Assembly: GCA_040880505.1 (NCBI GenBank)
Contig: JBBDIH010000034.1
Coordinates: 6,442-49,212, forward strand
Source: Minisyncoccota bacterium
GTDB taxonomy: Bacteria; Patescibacteriota; Minisyncoccia; UBA6257; GWB1-50-10
Length of the DNA stretch: 42,771 nucleotides
Direction: 5' to 3'
Shown here: positions 5,805 to 19,506 of the stretch, piece by piece
How the letters are laid out: each line of letters opens with the position of its first letter
Numbering within the stretch: the stretch's first letter is position 1
Program-made: the position numbers and the translations under genes
The notes under the pieces: generated by a model
Database searches by the model: none
What the model saw: only the letters and a program-made list of their open reading frames with translations
Told to the model about the DNA's origin: nothing

Positions 5805-6773
5805 TTAATAAATATATTCATCAATCACTTCACCCTTTGAGTTCAACAGTAATATTCTATCATGTAATTCGTCAAACACATCATCTTTTTCTATCCACAC
5901 TCTCCATTCATCTTCTAGAAAATCTTGATTACCTGAGTTTGTATTAAAACATGCCTCTGGATTGAAGTAATTTAATATAAAGTTTCTACAAGAAAGTCCT
6001 TGCTCTCCTCTAAAAGAATATACTTCACTTCGATCTGGAATCTCACAGTTTCTTACTCTTCTAATATAATTCTGACACTCGCCAGAAAGATGTGTATAAG
6101 TTGATGTTTCAGGACCAGGACAAGAGTTCGGGAAATCTGGTCTTGTCTCATATTCTTCATTTAGATAACCAGTACAAGTATTTAACCTTAAATTACCACG
6201 CCACAGGTCATCCCAATCAACCTCTGGATCATTTGGTTCCTCATCTTCATAATCTTCATAATAACCCTCATATACAATATAAATTCTTATTCTATGATCA
6301 TCTCTAACAACTATATCACTTTCAACATTATTTTCTGGTTCTGAAACATTAAAGAAATTAACCGCTTGAGGAACTGTAATGTAATTTGTATTACTCTGAA
6401 TTCTCCATCCTGTTAAATTAAGTAATTCTCCCTCGTTTAAGTTAACTTTTAAATCCATATATCTTGGAGACGTATCTGTCCCTTTTTTCCTAACAGAAGA
6501 CACTTGAACAACTCCTTTTCTACTTTCTGGATAATAAACCACTGGAATTGAAGGTTGGTTATTATTAACACCCGTATTTATGGATGTCTCTACTTGATCT
6601 TCTACCTCTTCAGCTTCTTCTTTATTTTCTTCTGTTATTTCTTCAGTTGAAGTTGTTATTTCAGAATCACTAGAACCAGACGATGGAAATAACTGGATAT
6701 CTTCTGTAACTGTTATAAAAGCAACGAAAAGAACGAAAATACTTAAAAATAAAAGAAAAGCAACATTTTTCAT
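5805..6773 (-). CDS. Hypothetical secreted/membrane-anchored protein with acidic linker and six-Cys domain
   Basis: N-terminal TM, Glu/Thr-rich linker, LNLTGWRI and terminal LLNSKGEVIDEY (lamin-tail-like flavour), six Cys in the C-terminal half. Confidence 0.6.
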   Translation of the reverse strand: MKNVAFLLFLSIFVLFVAFITVTEDIQLFPSSGSSDSEITTSTEEITEENKEEAEEVEDQVETSINTGVNNNQPSIPVVYYPESRKGVVQVSSVRKKGTDTSPRYMDLKVNLNEGELLNLTGWRIQSNTNYITVPQAVNFFNVSEPENNVESDIVVRDDHRIRIYIVYEGYYEDYEDEEPNDPEVDWDDLWRGNLRLNTCTGYLNEEYETRPDFPNSCPGPETSTYTHLSGECQNYIRRVRNCEIPDRSEVYSFRGEQGLSCRNFILNYFNPEACFNTNSGNQDFLEDEWRVWIEKDDVFDELHDRILLLNSKGEVIDEYIY

Positions 6774-13388: not shown

Positions 13389-13823
13389 TTATACTTCATT
13401 AGATTTCTCCTGCATCTCTTTATAAATTGTCCCCATAACACCATTTATAAACTTAGGTGAATTTATGCCACCATAGTTTTTAGCTATTTCAACAGATTCA
13501 TTTATAGCTACCTTATGTGGAACTTCTTCTTTGTTTGCGTATAAAAGCTCGTATAAACCCAGTCTTAGAACATTTCTATCTACTATAGCTATTTGGTTTA
13601 TTGGCCAATCAGGAGCTGCCTTTTCGATAATTTTATCTATATCTTCTAGGTGCTCCACTATTCCTTTGGCCATATTCCAAGCAAACTCAGGTTCATCAAC
13701 TCCCTTAGCAAATTCATTCATGTTTCTTTCAAGAATATCGGTAAAATTATGTTCTTTACCATAAAAATCCCATTCAAAAAAAGTTTGAAATACAACTGTT
13801 CTTAAAAGATGCCTAGTAGCCAT
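13389..13823 (-). CDS. nusB: Transcription antitermination factor NusB
   Basis: R...[40 protein letters not shown]....KFINGVMG. Confidence 0.96.
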
Positions 13824-13831
13824 AATGAAAC

Positions 13832-14002
13832 TTAATCTTTTTTCTTAGATGCCTTGTGATTACCACAGTAAGAGCATGCTCTATGAAAAAGTTTTGGAGC
13901 TCCACACTCTGAACAAACTGAAATGTTTTGTTTCTTTAGATTTTTTTGAGATCTTCTTTTTCCAACTTTGGATTTCGAGTCTCTTTGTTTTGGTACTGCC
14001 AT
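13832..14002 (-). CDS. rpmF: 50S ribosomal protein L32 (not in ORF track)
   Basis: Manual translation, 56 aa: [56 protein letters not shown]; AVPK start and CxxC...H..CxxCG zinc motif; AGGAG upstream. Confidence 0.95.
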
Positions 14003-14023
14003 ATCTCCTAAAGTAATAATTTT

Positions 14024-14626
14024 TTATATAAAAGTCAATCTATGTATCCTACAAGGACCATGAAATTTCAATAAATTCATATGTTCTTTTGTTCCATACC
14101 CTTTATGCTTTGAAAAATTATATTCTGGAAATTCTTTATCGTATCTATTCATTGCTCTATCTCTACTTACTTTAGCTATAATAGACGCCATTTTTATAGA
14201 GGATATTTTAGTATCTCCCTTAATAATAGATTCATACTCTATAAAAGATTTTTTATTACCAATCCTTATTCCTCCGTCAGTTAAAACATCAACTTCATCT
14301 TTATTTAATGAATGGCTTAAAAATATTTTTTTGATACATCTTTCTGCTGCTAAATTAACAGCTTTAGATATATTAATTTTATCTATAGTTTTTGGGTAAA
14401 CAGATGAAACAATAAAAGAAATGTCTTTTTGTTTTGCATACTCAAACCAATCTTCTCTTTGTTTTTCTGTGTGTTTTTTAGAGTCTCTTAAAGATATTTT
14501 TTTATTTTTATAAATTAACTCTCCAAAATTAAAATTTTTTGGTATAAGAACAGCCGCTACGGTAACGGGTCCAGCCAGTGGTCCCCTACCAACCTCATCA
14601 ACTCCTATCTCAAAATTACTCAACAT
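14024..14626 (-). CDS. rnhB: Ribonuclease HII
   Basis: GVDEVGRGPLAGPV, DSKK, DG, KGD, ASIIAKVSRD, KHKGYGT, HRLTF. Confidence 0.96.
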   Translation of the reverse strand: MLSNFEIGVDEVGRGPLAGPVTVAAVLIPKNFNFGELIYKNKKISLRDSKKHTEKQREDWFEYAKQKDISFIVSSVYPKTIDKINISKAVNLAAERCIKKIFLSHSLNKDEVDVLTDGGIRIGNKKSFIEYESIIKGDTKISSIKMASIIAKVSRDRAMNRYDKEFPEYNFSKHKGYGTKEHMNLLKFHGPCRIHRLTFI

Positions 14627-15227
14627 TTATATTATTTTCTATTATGCCTAAAGTCTCTGACTTAACAAGAAAAGATTGGTTTAAAGAATTTATAAAGCTT
14701 CTTTTTTCATTTAAAAGGTTAATTTGGTTTTCTATTATATTACTATTATTAGAAGATGGGTTAACTAATTCATTTCTTAATGTTTCTAAAAATGCCTCAA
14801 CATTATTTGTGTATTCTATAAACTCTTGAACCATTCTAGATTGAATCATAACTACCTCTAACAAACTTATCTGAAGAGTAGAAGATTCTACGTTTTGAAT
14901 TTCTCTTGTCATTTCCTCTAAAAGATATGAGAGGTTTATTGCTGACCGCTTGGCTTGAATGTTTATATCTCTAGCTTCTTCTATTTCTATTAAAGCGCTT
15001 TCTATATCTCCTAAACTTTCTACTTCGTTAACTTCTCTTATTTTTTCATTTGTTTTATTGGTTAAAGAAACAAGACTTTGACTACTTGTCAGTATATTAA
15101 AATAAGAATCGTTAATATTTTCTGGGACAATTTCAGTCTCATTAACAAAATAAAAAACTAGCATGGCCAGAAACAACAAGGCTATCATTCCATATATTAA
15201 ATACTTTTGATCTTTTGTAAGTTTCAT
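14616..15227 (-). CDS. Hypothetical membrane-anchored helical protein
   Basis: N-terminal TM followed by predicted coiled-coil/helical bundle; overlaps the rnhB start by 11 nt. Confidence 0.65.
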   Translation of the reverse strand: MKLTKDQKYLIYGMIALLFLAMLVFYFVNETEIVPENINDSYFNILTSSQSLVSLTNKTNEKIREVNEVESLGDIESALIEIEEARDINIQAKRSAINLSYLLEEMTREIQNVESSTLQISLLEVVMIQSRMVQEFIEYTNNVEAFLETLRNELVNPSSNNSNIIENQINLLNEKRSFINSLNQSFLVKSETLGIIENNINVE

Positions 15228-15239
15228 ATTGTTTAATTT

Positions 15240-15313
15240 TGGTGCGGGATAGGAGAATCGAACTCCTGTCTACTGCTTGGAAGGCAGTCATTCTACCACT
15301 AAACTAATCCCGC
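15240..15313 (-). tRNA. tRNA-Gly (anticodon TCC), CCA encoded
   Basis: GCGGGATTAGTTTAGTGGTAGAATGACTGCCTTCCAAGCAGTAGACAGGAGTTCGATTCTCCTATCCCGCACCA: 74 nt, acceptor stem GCGGGAT/ATCCCGC, anticodon arm ACTGC-CTTCCAA-GCAGT, T-loop GTTCGATT. Confidence 0.97.
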
Positions 15314-15404
15314 GAAATCTAACAAAGTATAACTCCCACAATCTTATTCTTACATAACATTAGACCAAAAAAACAATCATTATTCAAACTTTTAATTATT
15401 AAAA

Positions 15405-15432
15405 AGGAGCTAAGAAATTAATCCTAGCTCCT
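15405..15432 (-). terminator. Intrinsic terminator after the ATP-grasp gene
   Basis: 8-bp stem aggagcta/tagctcct followed by a T run on the minus strand, 10 nt past the stop codon. Confidence 0.65.
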
Positions 15433-15441
15433 GTAACCATG

Positions 15442-16473
15442 TTAATTAGGGTTAATAAGAAGGTCAGCAATAGACTCGGAAATTCTAGATTTCAAATTAG
15501 GTAACCAACGACCAATCCAAAACCAATCACCGCTTGAATTTATTTCAAGAAAAATGAAATTTCCTTTCTTGTCTTTGATGATGTCTATACATCCAAAGCT
15601 TAATCCAAAAGAATGCGTAAGTTTTATACATTTATCTTTTAATTCTTCTGGAAGTTTAAACTCTGAACAAATAATCTCATCATCGTTTTTGATTGCTCTC
15701 CAATCATCATTTACTAGCTTGTTAGATGTTTTTTGACCATCAATCGCACAACAAAAAGCATTATTACCTACTACAGTAACTCGAAGCTCTACTTCTTTTT
15801 CTACGTATTCCTGATAGGTAGCCGGCGATAAGCTAATACTTTCCTGTTCTTTTTCAAGTTCTTTTAGAGTAAAGGACTTTGTAAAAGTTCGATATATGAA
15901 ATCTTTACCTTTTTCTTCCTGAAAAAACCCACCAATCATAATAGGCTTAACAGCAATCTTGGTGATTTCATTGTCTCTTGCCCATTCCATTAGCTCATTA
16001 AAACTACTGGTAAAAATAGTAGTTGGTATAGAAAATCCTATTTTTTTTGCTAAAGAAAGTTGCCAAGGCTTACGAGAAGCACCAACAACGCTATCAATAG
16101 GATTTAAGATAAATATTTCCTTAGAAAATAAGTTCTGGCTTCCATAAACAAATTCTACGTAATCTTTTATTATGTACATAGCTTCGTTATCAGATAAACC
16201 ATATTCACTAATAAGTGTTTTTTTATTACAGTTTATACTTCTAAGCCATACTGACTTTATTTCCTTTAGTAAATATTTAATTTTATTTTCCTCAGAAAAA
16301 TTATAGCTAATTCTTGATTCATGATTAGAATGCATAATTCCAATTTCAGGAAAATTAAAAGGCAAAGTGGTGTCAACTAAAAGAACTTCAGAGCCTTTAC
16401 TTTCTATAAAACTAATTACTTCATGAGCACCTTTGTCGTCATCACTAGTAAAAATAAGAATTTGATCTTTCAT
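15442..16473 (-). CDS. MvdC/MvdD-type ATP-grasp ligase (graspetide/omega-ester peptide maturase)
   Basis: N-terminal ILIFTSDDD..A.EV, VWLR, KPWQLSLAKKIGFSIPTTIFTS, AVKPI, YQEYVEKEVELRVTVVG, DWR, FGLSFGCIDII, FLEINSSGDWFWI: hallmark motifs of RiPP ATP-grasp maturases rather than generic RimK. GGAG RBS upstream. Confidence 0.88.
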   Translation of the reverse strand: MKDQILIFTSDDDKGAHEVISFIESKGSEVLLVDTTLPFNFPEIGIMHSNHESRISYNFSEENKIKYLLKEIKSVWLRSINCNKKTLISEYGLSDNEAMYIIKDYVEFVYGSQNLFSKEIFILNPIDSVVGASRKPWQLSLAKKIGFSIPTTIFTSSFNELMEWARDNEITKIAVKPIMIGGFFQEEKGKDFIYRTFTKSFTLKELEKEQESISLSPATYQEYVEKEVELRVTVVGNNAFCCAIDGQKTSNKLVNDDWRAIKNDDEIICSEFKLPEELKDKCIKLTHSFGLSFGCIDIIKDKKGNFIFLEINSSGDWFWIGRWLPNLKSRISESIADLLINPN

Positions 16474-16560
16474 ATTATTATCTCCATATATTAAAATTTG
16501 TTAAAGATCTTTTTAAATGATACTATAAATTATAATCAAACAATTTAGTAAAAAAGTCAA

Positions 16561-17214
16561 ATGAACACAGGCAAAAAGAGAAAGGTAAGAGAATTAATAG
16601 AAAATAAAAATTTTAACAAAGCCATAGAACTTTTAGAGGAAATATTAGAGAAAAATCCGAATGACACGGATGCTTTATATAATCTAGGATTTGCTTATGA
16701 TCATAAAGCAAAAAATGATGAAGATAGGGAGAAATTTTATCCTAAAGCTGAAGAAGCATATAAAAAAGCCTTGAAGGTAAATCCGAAACTTGAAAAATGT
16801 CTTGGTGGATTAGGAATGTTGATGTGGTATAAAGCTAGACATGCGTCTAAAAATAATAAAAAAGATGAATATCTTAAAGAATCATCAAATTACCTAGAAA
16901 AAGCATACAAAATAAATGAAAATCATAATCTACTTCCGATAATTGCTAATATAAAATTTGAAAAAGGTGAAACTGAAGAAGGTGAAAAGTATCTACTAAG
17001 AGCCGAGAAAATACTTGAGGATCCATTTTCTGTTTATGTTAATGGAGCTTTTAGGTTAGTAGAAGTAGGTCAAAATGAAAAAGCTAAAAAATACGCTAAA
17101 AAAGCCTTGAAAAATGCTAATAACCATTGGGATATGGAATCGAAAATAGTAAAGGAATATATTACAAAACTAGAAGAAATATCTAAAAATGGGAAATTAA
17201 AAAGGAGAAGTTAA
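16561..17214 (+). CDS. Tetratricopeptide-repeat protein
   Basis: NFNKAIELLEEILEKNPNDTDALYNLG, AEEAYKKALKVNPK...CLGGLG, YLEKAYKIN: repeated TPR consensus. Confidence 0.85.
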   Translation: MNTGKKRKVRELIENKNFNKAIELLEEILEKNPNDTDALYNLGFAYDHKAKNDEDREKFYPKAEEAYKKALKVNPKLEKCLGGLGMLMWYKARHASKNNKKDEYLKESSNYLEKAYKINENHNLLPIIANIKFEKGETEEGEKYLLRAEKILEDPFSVYVNGAFRLVEVGQNEKAKKYAKKALKNANNHWDMESKIVKEYITKLEEISKNGKLKRRS

Positions 17215-17229
17215 AATAACTTCTCCTTT
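17201..17229. terminator. Bidirectional terminator between the convergent TPR and precursor genes
   Basis: Perfect 13-bp stem aaaggagaagtta-aaa-taacttctccttt. Confidence 0.75.
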
Positions 17230-17248
17230 AGTTTAAATTTTCTTTGAA

Positions 17249-17410
17249 TCAACGAGTATTGGTAGGATACTCTTCGTTCTCAGCTGTTAAGCGAGACATC
17301 TTAGACGCTTCTGAAGCATCTCTTTTTTCCAAAAGTTTAAGAAGAATAGGTCTCTTCTTTGTATTGTTAACAACTTTGGCCTGGTCTTCCTTCTTTGCTA
17401 AAGTTTCCAT
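17249..17410 (-). CDS. Putative graspetide precursor peptide (53 aa; not in ORF track)
   Basis: METLAKKEDQAKVVNNTKKRPILLKLLEKRDASEASKMSRLTAENEEYPTNTR. Leader-like KKRPILLKLLEK resembles the PFFxxFLE recognition motif; C-terminal S/K/S/T donors precede E44/E46/E47 acceptors; AAGGT RBS upstream. Confidence 0.72.
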   Translation of the reverse strand: METLAKKEDQAKVVNNTKKRPILLKLLEKRDASEASKMSRLTAENEEYPTNTR

Positions 17411-17468
17411 GATTATTACCTTATGATTTTTGATTTAAGATTATGGTTATGTAAAAGAGCTTATTTAA

Positions 17469-17497
17469 AAAATAAACCTATAGATAAAGTTTGTCAA
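17469..17497 (-). promoter_or_regulatory. Putative sigma70 promoter of the precursor gene
   Basis: Minus strand TTGACA (17497-17492), 17-nt spacer, TATTTT (17474-17469); about 58 nt upstream of ATG 17410. Confidence 0.6.
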
Positions 17498-17563
17498 AGT
17501 AAGATGCAAAAGTATTTTCCTTACATAGATAAATTTTGAATAAAAATTCTTGTTTAACCAAAA

Positions 17564-17589
17564 TTTATACTGTAACGTTACAGTATAAA
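17564..17589. promoter_or_regulatory. Perfect 26-bp palindrome (candidate operator)
   Basis: tttatactgtaac|gttacagtataaa with no spacer, in the divergent intergenic region. Confidence 0.5.
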
Positions 17590-17610
17590 GTCTGATAAAA
17601 TAAGACTTGA

Positions 17611-17636
17611 CGAAACAATTTAGCTTTTAAAACGTT
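17611..17636 (+). promoter_or_regulatory. Putative autoregulatory ECF promoter
   Basis: CGAAAC (17611-17616), 16 nt, CGTT (17633-17636), resembling the TGAAAC-N16-CGTA/T promoters of B. subtilis SigW/SigM-type ECFs; ends 7 nt before the sigma ATG. Confidence 0.5.
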
Positions 17637-17643
17637 TTATATT

Positions 17644-18195
17644 ATGAGTAAGGACAAAAAGTTAGTCAAAAAGGCTCAAAAGGGTGATTCTAATGCCTTT
17701 GGAAAACTATACGATAAATATATAGACAGAATATACCGTTATATCTTCATTAGAGTTAGTAACAAAACAGAAGCAGAAGATGTAACACAACAAGTTTTTC
17801 TAAAAGCTTGGAAAAATATAAACAGATACGAAACTCAAAAAAATACCCCCTTCTCTAGTTGGTTATACACAATAGCTAAAAATTCCATAATAGATTATTA
17901 CAGAAAAGACAGAGATCATTTAGATATAGATTTTGTCTCAGATAAAATCTCTACATCAGAAAAACACCAAGAAGAAAAAACTGACACAGAACTAAGAATA
18001 GAATTAGTAAAAAACCAACTAAACAGGCTCTCCGAAGATGAACAAGATGTATTAATAATGAGATTCATTGATGAAATGTCTAATAAAGAAGTTGCTAAAA
18101 TAACAGGTAAAACAAGTGGAGCTGTTAGAGTAATGCAACACAGAGCTTTAAAAAAACTAAAGAAACAGATTAAGAAACAATATCATGATGGATAA
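17644..18195 (+). CDS. ECF (group 4) RNA polymerase sigma factor
   Basis: AQKGDSNAFGKLYDKY...IYRYI, AEDVTQQVFLKAW, FSSWLYTIAKN...D; region 4 L...EQDVLIMRF..EMS.KEVA...GK..GAVRV..HRAL.KL. Confidence 0.95.
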   Translation: MSKDKKLVKKAQKGDSNAFGKLYDKYIDRIYRYIFIRVSNKTEAEDVTQQVFLKAWKNINRYETQKNTPFSSWLYTIAKNSIIDYYRKDRDHLDIDFVSDKISTSEKHQEEKTDTELRIELVKNQLNRLSEDEQDVLIMRFIDEMSNKEVAKITGKTSGAVRVMQHRALKKLKKQIKKQYHDG

Positions 18196-18637
18196 AGAAA
18201 CATTAAAACAATTTAAAATTCTTAAAGTAATTAAGCCTGATGAAGACTTTAAACAAAGCACAAGAAATATAATTCTTGCTCAAAAACCTGTTGAAAACAG
18301 AGGATTTAGCTTTTTACCAAAAGTAATAGCATTCACAGCCGCTCTGTCCGTAATACTTGTTGGGTTTATTGGATTTAACAGTTTAAGTAATCCTAGTTTA
18401 GCTTCTTTAGATCAAGAAGAATTAAACAATGAAATAATGCAAAGCTTACAAATAGAAGAAATAGAATATAGACAAAACATTAATGAGACAATAGCTTCAG
18501 CACTATCAGAGGTTTCAAGTTCTAGAAGTAATCACTTGGACCCTTCTATTTTAGAATCAGAAAATACCTTTATTCAAAATAAACAAATTAACAGAGATGA
18601 AGAAGTTGGCGAACTTCTCAATCAAATAATATTTTAA
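18185..18637 (+). CDS. Single-TM protein, putative anti-sigma factor
   Basis: Overlaps the sigma stop; short cytoplasmic N-terminus (PDEDFKQSTR), one TM, extracellular C-terminus. Confidence 0.55.
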   Translation: MMDKETLKQFKILKVIKPDEDFKQSTRNIILAQKPVENRGFSFLPKVIAFTAALSVILVGFIGFNSLSNPSLASLDQEELNNEIMQSLQIEEIEYRQNINETIASALSEVSSSRSNHLDPSILESENTFIQNKQINRDEEVGELLNQIIF

Positions 18638-18640
18638 TCC

Positions 18641-19459
18641 ATGAAAAACAAAGATAAAAAACAAAGATTTGCAGTAAAAATTATATTAATTACTTTTCTA
18701 ACTATATTTTCATTTTCTATTAATGTTGCCTCAGCACAAACTGAAGAAGTAAAAAAAGCTGTTGAAGAGACAAGAGAAAGCGTAAACGAATTAATAGAAG
18801 CTAAGGATGAAGAGAGTCCTCTAGATTTAGGCTTAAGAATAGAAACATTTAAGAAAGCGATTAACTTGTCTATAGCCGAAGCAAAAGACCTAAAAGTAAA
18901 ATTAATAGCAGAAGATGACATAGAAAATGAAGATTTTATAATCTGGAGAGAAGAATCTTTAGTAATAATTAATAATTCTTTAGATTATTATGAAAAATTT
19001 AAAGAGTATACAGAAGTTAATAAAAATAGAATAAATGAAGACGTAATAAAAGACATAGCTCTTCAATTTAAAGAAGAGAGAGAAGAAAAATTTATCAAAA
19101 TAAATAAAGAAATTAGAAACTTTCTATTAATTCAAAAAGCTAAAGAAACTATTGATATAACCAATAAAAGATGGGGAAGAATAGAAACAGATCTAGAAAA
19201 TCTTGAAGAAGCTGAGTTTATAGATGAAAACTCTGATCTTTGGAGTTTATTGGATCAATCAAAAGTATTTATAGAAAAAGGTGACAAATTAATTGTTGAA
19301 GCCGAAGAAAATTTCTACAATCAAAAAATAAGAAAAACAATACCGGACAATTTAGATTTATCAATAAAAGATGATTTAATCGCATCTCTAAATGAAATGA
19401 GAAGCGCTTATCAGGTCTTTATTGAAATGAGCAACATGGTGAGGGATTTGCTCAAATAA
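18641..19459 (+). CDS. Hypothetical secreted alpha-helical protein
   Basis: Signal peptide ending INVASA-Q; Glu/Lys-rich helical body; co-transcribed with the ECF sigma. Confidence 0.65.
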   Translation: MKNKDKKQRFAVKIILITFLTIFSFSINVASAQTEEVKKAVEETRESVNELIEAKDEESPLDLGLRIETFKKAINLSIAEAKDLKVKLIAEDDIENEDFIIWREESLVIINNSLDYYEKFKEYTEVNKNRINEDVIKDIALQFKEEREEKFIKINKEIRNFLLIQKAKETIDITNKRWGRIETDLENLEEAEFIDENSDLWSLLDQSKVFIEKGDKLIVEAEENFYNQKIRKTIPDNLDLSIKDDLIASLNEMRSAYQVFIEMSNMVRDLLK

Positions 19460-19478
19460 AAAGTAAAAAGTCGAAATT

Positions 19479-19506
19479 TTAAAACCCCCCATTTGGGGGG
19501 TTTTAA
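19479..19506. terminator. Bidirectional terminator
   Basis: ttaaaacccccc-attt-ggggggttttaa (12-bp stem) between convergent genes. Confidence 0.8.

Follow-up and report, generated by a model that had tools for sequence, protein, structure and literature searches.

Graspetides are peptides made on the ribosome and altered by post-translational modification (RiPPs), of the omega-ester/omega-amide kind. Their ATP-grasp ligases phosphorylate Glu side chains of a precursor peptide with ATP, after which Ser/Thr or Lys residues attack and a lactone or lactam is formed. The leader of the precursor docks on the enzyme, as the PFFARFL segment of MdnA does on MdnC in structure 5IG9. In this work we analysed a stretch of 42,771 nucleotides (hereafter the window; positions 6,442 to 49,212 of the forward strand of contig JBBDIH010000034.1) from the Minisyncoccota bacterium assembly GCA_040880505.1, in which a preliminary description, made from the sequence alone, had proposed a compact graspetide gene cluster. 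The results lead us to consider, with a probability of about 80%, that one locus of this window is a three-gene graspetide cluster of the type predicted in genomes of the Candidate Phyla Radiation (CPR)/Parcubacteria, composed of genes encoding an ATP-grasp macrocyclase, a tetratricopeptide repeat (TPR) protein and a 53-aa precursor peptide.

The closest described systems are those of Makarova et al. (2022, Biol Direct 17:7; PMC8939145), who reported two branches of ATP-grasp proteins made of CPR genomes. In the precursors predicted in that study the leader motif Phhx(1,2)h lies among the first 30 residues, and the core is in most cases of the form TxxxTx(6-10)Dx(1-4)D; these precursors include the clusters 1472 (Giovannonibacteria, MLKQQEMPFALRFAEP...), 1871/4012 (..TPLLLRRMEDKP..) and 1029. 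In many CPR loci precursors were not found, and it was suggested that they may be encoded far off. Frequent partners of these loci are a TPR protein ('cluster 5'), whose role was called unclear, and a protein of 'cluster 23' (PMC8939145). The graspetide census was recently enlarged with RODEO by Carter et al. (2026; PMC13097080), with groups 27 and 42 from candidate phyla, the latter associated with DUF6624; the first graspetide synthetase dependent on a partner protein, MirB/MirC (rosaritide), is also described there. We found that 'cluster 23' corresponds to DUF6624, the same DUF to which attention is drawn in RODEO group 42. In the literature searched, we found no graspetide from CPR/Patescibacteria that had been characterised experimentally.

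In the window the three genes span 2.1 kb. Their coordinates were read from a listing of open reading frames (ORFs) under translation table 11, and the TPR ORF lies on the strand opposite to that of the ligase and the 53-aa ORF:

15442 to 16473, minus strand: gene encoding a graspetide-type ATP-grasp macrocyclase of 343 aa, MvdD/MdnC-like (NCBIfam, PDB and fold matches)
16561 to 17214, plus strand: gene encoding a TPR protein of 217 aa with 11 helices, the ligase partner (Pfam TPR families, structure model, relatives)
17249 to 17410, minus strand: gene of the predicted graspetide precursor, 53 aa (leader P21-ILLKLLEKR; candidate core S33 to R53, …SKMSRLTAENEEYPTNTR)

The assignment of the ligase to the graspetide macrocyclase superfamily is supported, with graspetide enzymes ranking above RimK in every test. 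Among the NCBIfam models, the protein matched over its full length TIGR04184 (MvdD; 165.5 bits, 1.6e-48), TIGR04187 (SAV_5884 subfamily; 148.7 bits, 2.1e-43) and TIGR04185 (MvdC; 133 bits, 1.3e-38), while the models of other enzymes gave 39.9 bits (rimK_fam, 3e-10), 20.8 bits (LysX, 2e-4) and 16.5 bits (GshB). A search of the PDB sequences returned only graspetide macrocyclases (MdnC, CdnC, AMdnB, MdnB, PruB and PsnB), the best match being MdnC (5ig9; 5.5e-30, residues 7-341), and no RimK chain at E<=0.01. The AlphaFold2 model built from 42 homologues reached a predicted local distance difference test score (pLDDT) of 90.5 and a predicted template modelling score (pTM) of 0.90, and presents an N-terminal MvdD-type pre-ATP-grasp domain together with the ATP-grasp fold. 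When this model was compared with the PDB by Foldseek, the 32 best matches were all graspetide macrocyclases (template modelling score, TM, 0.7-0.87), the alignments with CdnC, MdnC, AMdnB, PruB and PsnB extending over 341-348 columns; RimK and ArgX ranked behind them, with a TM of about 0.6-0.7. Both the comparison with the MvdC/MvdD models that had been suggested in the preliminary description and the PDB sequence and fold searches thus place the ligase with graspetide synthetases and not with RimK/LysX.

The motifs by which the 343-aa ORF had initially been recognized (KPWQL..A..IGFSIPTT, ELRVTVVG, DWR, FGCID and FLEINSSGDWFW) were all recovered and fall on columns that are invariant or nearly so. 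In an alignment of 42 sequences, in which the window ligase is itself included, the latter keeps 12 of the 12 invariant columns (K135, A142, P150, K176, Q221, R231, D257, R259, D297, E310, N312 and G315), and Q138 also stands on an invariant or nearly invariant column. The residues kept include those of DWR (D257-W-R259) and the metal-binding (Mg/ATP) triad D297/E310/N312.

The product of the 53-aa ORF is METLAKKEDQAKVVNNTKKRPILLKLLEKRDASEASKMSRLTAENEEYPTNTR. The length of this ORF alone is not significant at 30% G+C, and codon, motif and synteny tests were used, which agree with the precursor-like character attributed to it in the preliminary description. Codon log-odds, for which 544 long ORFs of this genome served as the training set, give it 0.384 per codon, while chunks of real genes average 0.344; a value this high is attained by only 0.9% of the 1,743 spurious ORFs with at least 53 codons, and an antisense 60-aa ORF that overlaps the precursor is noise-like (0.011). 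Moreover, an independent gene caller predicted the 53-aa ORF on two other contigs of the same strain.

The precursors of related loci (designated here by L and a number) share a leader motif PFxxRFAE(K/R/P), as in L003 (PFPVRFAERS), L004 (PFLTRFAKKP) and L042 (PFMVRFAERP), with further versions in L015 (PFIANFLEKP) and L011 (PLMFRFAEKR). The pattern derived from these relatives, P[FILMV]..[RKN][FL][AL]E[KR], has one copy in the six frames of the 1.36-Mb assembly, which is PILLKLLEK of the 53-aa ORF, about 800 bp from the ligase. At about one match per genome, it would come to lie no more than about 3 kb from the ligase with a probability of roughly 2 in 1,000. The published Phhx(1,2)h leader is likewise present, as P21-I-L-L-K-L, within the first 30 residues or so. 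The window peptide and strings of the RFAEK type had no match in the supplementary files of Makarova et al. (2022). One of the relatives' precursors, that of L097, is identical to the cluster 1472 peptide, and L009 is the Branch_1 genome GW2011_GWA2_40_143 of the Makarova supplement, where its precursor is given.

The precursor/TPR/ligase trio also occurs in nine further genomes of this class. L003 (a contig of Wolfebacteria), L004, L015, L042, L096 and L097 have the layout of the window, with the precursor in the same position and orientation, convergent on an inverted TPR gene which is in turn divergent from the ligase; in L002, L098 and L102 the trio is co-directional. The occurrence of a conserved precursor beside homologous ligases, on which the first proposal depended, is therefore seen in the leader-motif precursors at the relatives' loci. 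Among 61 family/order relatives, eight carry a homologous ligase, with 31-35% identity.

The TPR gene, also announced in the preliminary description, encodes a protein that is matched by several Pfam TPR families (down to 3e-12). Its AlphaFold2 model (pLDDT 92.5) is all-alpha, and the fold search returned generic TPR superhelices only, with no functional or catalytic hint. It is homologous to the ligase-adjacent TPR proteins of L002, L003, L004, L015 and L042 (21-29% identity), with which it has the motifs LGxxYDH and YAKK in common. When 401 genomes of the class were searched with the TPR alignment only, 11 places in 10 genomes were obtained and a ligase lay within 1.5 kb at seven of the 11, these including every distinct genome among the six best scores. 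This linkage, set against the eight of 61 relatives that carry a ligase at all, indicates that the TPR gene belongs to the cluster and does not stand beside it by accident. In genome G069 a ligase-linked TPR gene was found twice with identical scores (L096 and L103, about 8 kb apart on contig C1), with ligase and precursor beside one of them only.

In other CPR loci (L005, L007, L008, L009, L014, L016, L018, L025 and L054) the TPR protein is replaced by a DUF6624 (PF20329) protein of 157-190 aa, and the two look like alternative or combinable partners. L015 has a TPR protein plus a weak DUF6624 match. In the whole genome of the window no gene of the DUF6624 family was found.

A number of results weigh against the view that the locus is a graspetide cluster of this type. 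The scores of the ligase are far under the equivalog cut-offs of the NCBIfam maturase models, which points to superfamily membership of a divergent protein rather than to a named equivalog, and the MvdD pre-ATP-grasp domain of Pfam (PF21068, residues 5-85) reached 22.5 bits for a cut-off of 27. In two trees, a quick one of 84 rows and a careful one of 37, the terminal branch of the ligase measures 1.9-2.25 substitutions per site and is thus some three times as long as the median branch. Because of this long branch neither tree placed the protein: its grouping with L009, L014 and L011, which are Branch-1 genomes, is weak (Shimodaira-Hasegawa-like approximate likelihood ratio test 80, ultrafast bootstrap 60), and no starred clade contains it.

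On the side of the peptide, a hidden Markov model (HMM) of ten relatives' precursors gave the 53-aa ORF E=26 and rank 12 among 25,162 ORFs of the genome, so that homology over the whole peptide is not demonstrable. This weak score fits the remark of Makarova et al. that a short leader motif is all that the CPR precursor clusters can be seen to share. The ORFs that scored better were rejected, as they are not precursor-like. The regular expression of the Branch 1 signature, TxxxTx(6-10)Dx(1-4)D, is not matched in the core, while it is present in five of the nine relatives compared. Moreover the core terminates in ...EEYPTNTR, whereas all nine relatives end acidic, with three or four D/E among the last eight residues. 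In addition, the locus has no other copies than near-identical ones, which provide no information on the ratio of nonsynonymous to synonymous substitutions in the ORF.

The segment that follows the leader has 27 aa in the window precursor and is the shortest of the ten compared (30-54 in the relatives). It lacks the usual signature of a Thr-cluster, a Gly-loop and an acidic C-terminus, and only the relaxed pattern [ST]..[ST]...[DE]..[DE] is found (S33..E47). The stop codons of the precursor and TPR genes are separated by 34 nt, a gap that is filled by a terminator and compares with 13-51 nt in the relatives; with such a normal spacing the short core appears to be native and not the outcome of a recent truncation. 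Reading the TGA as a sense codon was tried and rejected, since it adds only GFKENLN and does not restore the acidic tail. Candidate donors in the core are K37, S39, T42, T50 and T52, and candidate acceptors are E44, E46 and E47. We tentatively suggest, as a possibility that is less likely than not, that this is a new and very compact graspetide core, with the donors S39 and T42 followed by the acceptors E44, E46 and E47 or with the reversed polarity (E44-47 to T50/T52), which co-evolved with a strongly diverged ligase, and that the pathway may further require the TPR protein as a third subunit, in the manner of MirC. The atypical core may mean either that ligase and substrate co-diverged into a compact new core or that the cassette is drifting. 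We favour the former because the ORFs are intact, the catalytic residues are retained, codon usage is normal and the locus keeps its identity across three samples (two further contigs with the same ligase, from the same strain, differ by 1-3 single-nucleotide polymorphisms in 5.2 kb).

A cassette in decay, with a fast-evolving ligase, a lost canonical acceptor block and no cross-linked product any more, would explain the very long branch of the ligase, the 27-aa post-leader segment without the family signature and the lack of a DUF6624 partner, protease or exporter nearby. The replacement of the near-invariant P313 and Q316 of NPxGQW by S and D would also suit it, but these positions deviate in CdnC and MdnC too, and a G+C content of 30% could alone lengthen branches. 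Since all three ORFs are intact and genome-typical in codon usage, the 12 invariant columns are kept, the ligase model is confident and the spacing of the two stop codons gives no sign of a recent nonsense truncation, we regard decay as unlikely. We find it slightly less probable still that the 53-aa ORF is an unrelated small gene, or no gene, and that the ligase acts on a product encoded elsewhere or on the TPR protein. The non-significant precursor HMM and ORF length, and the frequent failure of Makarova et al. to find a CPR precursor (possibly encoded far off; PMC8939145), would be in line with such a substrate. Nevertheless the genome has no second copy of the leader motif, which stands at a syntenic position, the codon score is one that few spurious ORFs attain, the ORF has a ribosome-binding site and a terminator, and the intergenic gaps of 87, 128 and 233 bp contain no other plausible ORF. 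The ligase is single-copy, and neither the motif scan nor the precursor HMM revealed a second precursor-like ORF elsewhere in the genome.

That the enzyme is a ligase of the RimK/LysX type, adding amino acids to the C-terminus of a protein instead of closing rings, seems very improbable. The protein weakly matches the Pfam domain of RimK (1.2e-4) as well as rimK_fam, and RimK is the next-best fold class (TM 0.62/0.71); however, the graspetide maturase models score about 100-125 bits above rimK_fam, the PDB sequence matches and the 32 best fold matches are confined to macrocyclases, and the N-terminal MvdD-type domain is present. In no search was the best match a RimK or LysX model or structure. 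If the graspetide cluster is the right explanation, as we prefer, the pathway may be functional, as had been proposed at the outset, although the core of its precursor lacks the signature that most relatives have.

In the pathway that we propose, the ribosome would make the 53-aa peptide, whose leader P21-I-L-L-K-L-L-E-K-R can be seen as the form taken here by the PFxxRFAE(K/R/P) motif of the relatives and by the PFFARFL helix of microviridin and would dock on the ATP-grasp enzyme. With ATP, the enzyme would activate the carboxylates of E44, E46 and E47 in the core as acyl-phosphates, which would then be attacked by the hydroxyls of S39, T42 and possibly T50 and T52, or by the amine of Lys37. 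The expected product would bear one to three lactone/lactam rings, each with a loss of 18 Da. The TPR protein is probably a dedicated accessory, which most likely binds the ligase, the peptide or both as a scaffold or chaperone, a role suggested by its strict co-occurrence and by the precedent of MirC. Removal of the leader and export, if any, would be performed by proteins encoded elsewhere.

The regions around the three genes contain the following signals:

15405 to 15432, minus strand: terminator-like hairpin of the intrinsic type, 3' of the ligase gene (11-bp stem followed by a T-run, 10 nt past the stop codon)
16474 to 16560, no strand assigned: divergent intergenic region of 87 bp between the ligase and TPR genes, a probable shared promoter region (consensus matches only)
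17201 to 17229, no strand assigned: bidirectional terminator hairpin common to the TPR gene and the precursor gene, which converge (stem of 13 bp, with a score on either strand)
17469 to 17497, minus strand: promoter-like site 5' of the precursor gene, TTGACA-N17-TATTTT (a match to the consensus only, at 10 of 12 positions)

The ligase and the precursor had been said to have terminators of their own, and the hairpins at 15432-15405 and 17229-17201 bear this out; the latter, which lies inside the 34-nt gap between the two stop codons, also serves the TPR gene. Six terminator-like hairpins occur in 2.8 kb, for 0.8 expected from shuffled sequences. Within the 87-bp region promoter-like sequences were noted on both strands, TTAACA-N16-GATAAT (16504-16477, minus strand) and TTCATA-N17-TAAAAT (16469-16497, plus strand), as consensus matches only, and promoter-like sites are no more numerous in the region than expected from shuffled sequences. 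The ATG of the ligase is preceded by a GGAG ribosome-binding site 9 nt upstream, and the 53-aa ORF has an AAGG 8 nt upstream.

The gap of 233 bp between the precursor gene and a divergent operon contains a perfect palindrome of 26 bp (TTTATACTGTAAC|GTTACAGTATAAA) at 17564-17589, with no second copy in the genome when up to two mismatches were allowed in the 16-nt core. It could be an operator of the precursor gene or of the sigma factor gene that opens the operon. This operon (17644-19459) encodes an extracytoplasmic function (ECF) sigma factor of 183 aa, an overlapping protein of 150 aa with a predicted membrane helix, which is anti-sigma-like, and a protein of 272 aa with an N-terminal signal-like segment. 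The neighbourhood of the ECF operon is not conserved at the cassettes of the relatives, and L003 has a NUDIX-like gene in that place.

The other genes nearby have housekeeping functions (SMC, RNase III, NusB, L32, RNase HII, HU and RNase Y). Among the neighbouring genes there was no protease, acetyltransferase or exporter, and the annotation thus bears out what had been said of them. On another contig, an open frame of 233 aa (C261:1191-1760; L091/L092) gave a borderline match to Peptidase_C39 (22.5 bits for a cut-off of 22) and is the sole candidate for a leader peptidase that the assembly yielded. A tRNA-Gly(TCC) gene (15240-15313) lies directly downstream of the ligase terminator. Neither integration marks (a flanking direct repeat or a partial tRNA copy) nor long direct repeats flanking the cassette were found within 13500-19500, where the longest repeats are of 32 nt with 69-78% identity and lie inside genes.

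The assembly (G000) has 1.36 Mb in 315 contigs, with 88.8% completeness, 4.2% contamination and 30% G+C. This is about twice the size of the genomes of family/order relatives (0.5-0.9 Mb), and more than one strain or organism may be mixed in it. The CPR-like nature of the genome, noted in the preliminary description, is supported indirectly by the small genomes of these relatives and by the matching contigs, which bear the names Wolfebacteria, Parcubacteria, Yanofskybacteria and Paceibacterota.

In host-dependent bacteria that are poor in genes, ring-locked peptides might serve in interaction with the host, in protease inhibition or in the exclusion of competitors. The locus is clean, minimal and well-delimited, and therefore suited to heterologous reconstitution. 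Its atypical short core would probe the flexibility of the ligase, and the conserved TPR protein makes dependence on a partner protein testable.

Compared with microviridin, the closest solved structure to the ligase is MdnC (5IG9), matched over the full length at 5.5e-30 and with a TM of 0.79/0.87, although the identity is only about 27%. The two systems also share a hydrophobic leader helix initiated by Pro (PFFARFL there and PILLKLL here), presumed to dock on the ligase, and the ATP-dependent esterification/amidation of side chains, which is predicted for the window. Microviridin differs in having two ligases (MdnB and MdnC), a GNAT acetyltransferase, an ATP-binding cassette transporter and the core TxKYPSDWEEY, whereas the window has one ligase, none of these and a TPR protein in addition; the locus is thus no microviridin cluster with respect to core, number of ligases and GNAT. 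With MirB/MirC it shares a strictly co-occurring protein beside the ligase that does not look catalytic. MirC, however, is a PpiC-type chaperone-domain protein and the partner in the window is a TPR protein, of which there is no mention in PMC13097080.

The CPR loci of Makarova et al. resemble the window in the Parcubacteria-type host, the single MvdD-like ligase, the small precursor whose leader is of the Phhx(1,2)h type, the TPR partner and, often, the lack of a protease or exporter. Unlike Branch 1 of those authors, the window has a core (SKMSRLTAENEEYPTNTR) that lacks both TxxxTx(6-10)Dx(1-4)D and an acidic C-terminus, and its genome has no DUF6624 gene. The 2022 publication already describes the class and its host group, as well as the leader motif and the association with TPR proteins, and the locus, which adds no new category, is a further example of them.

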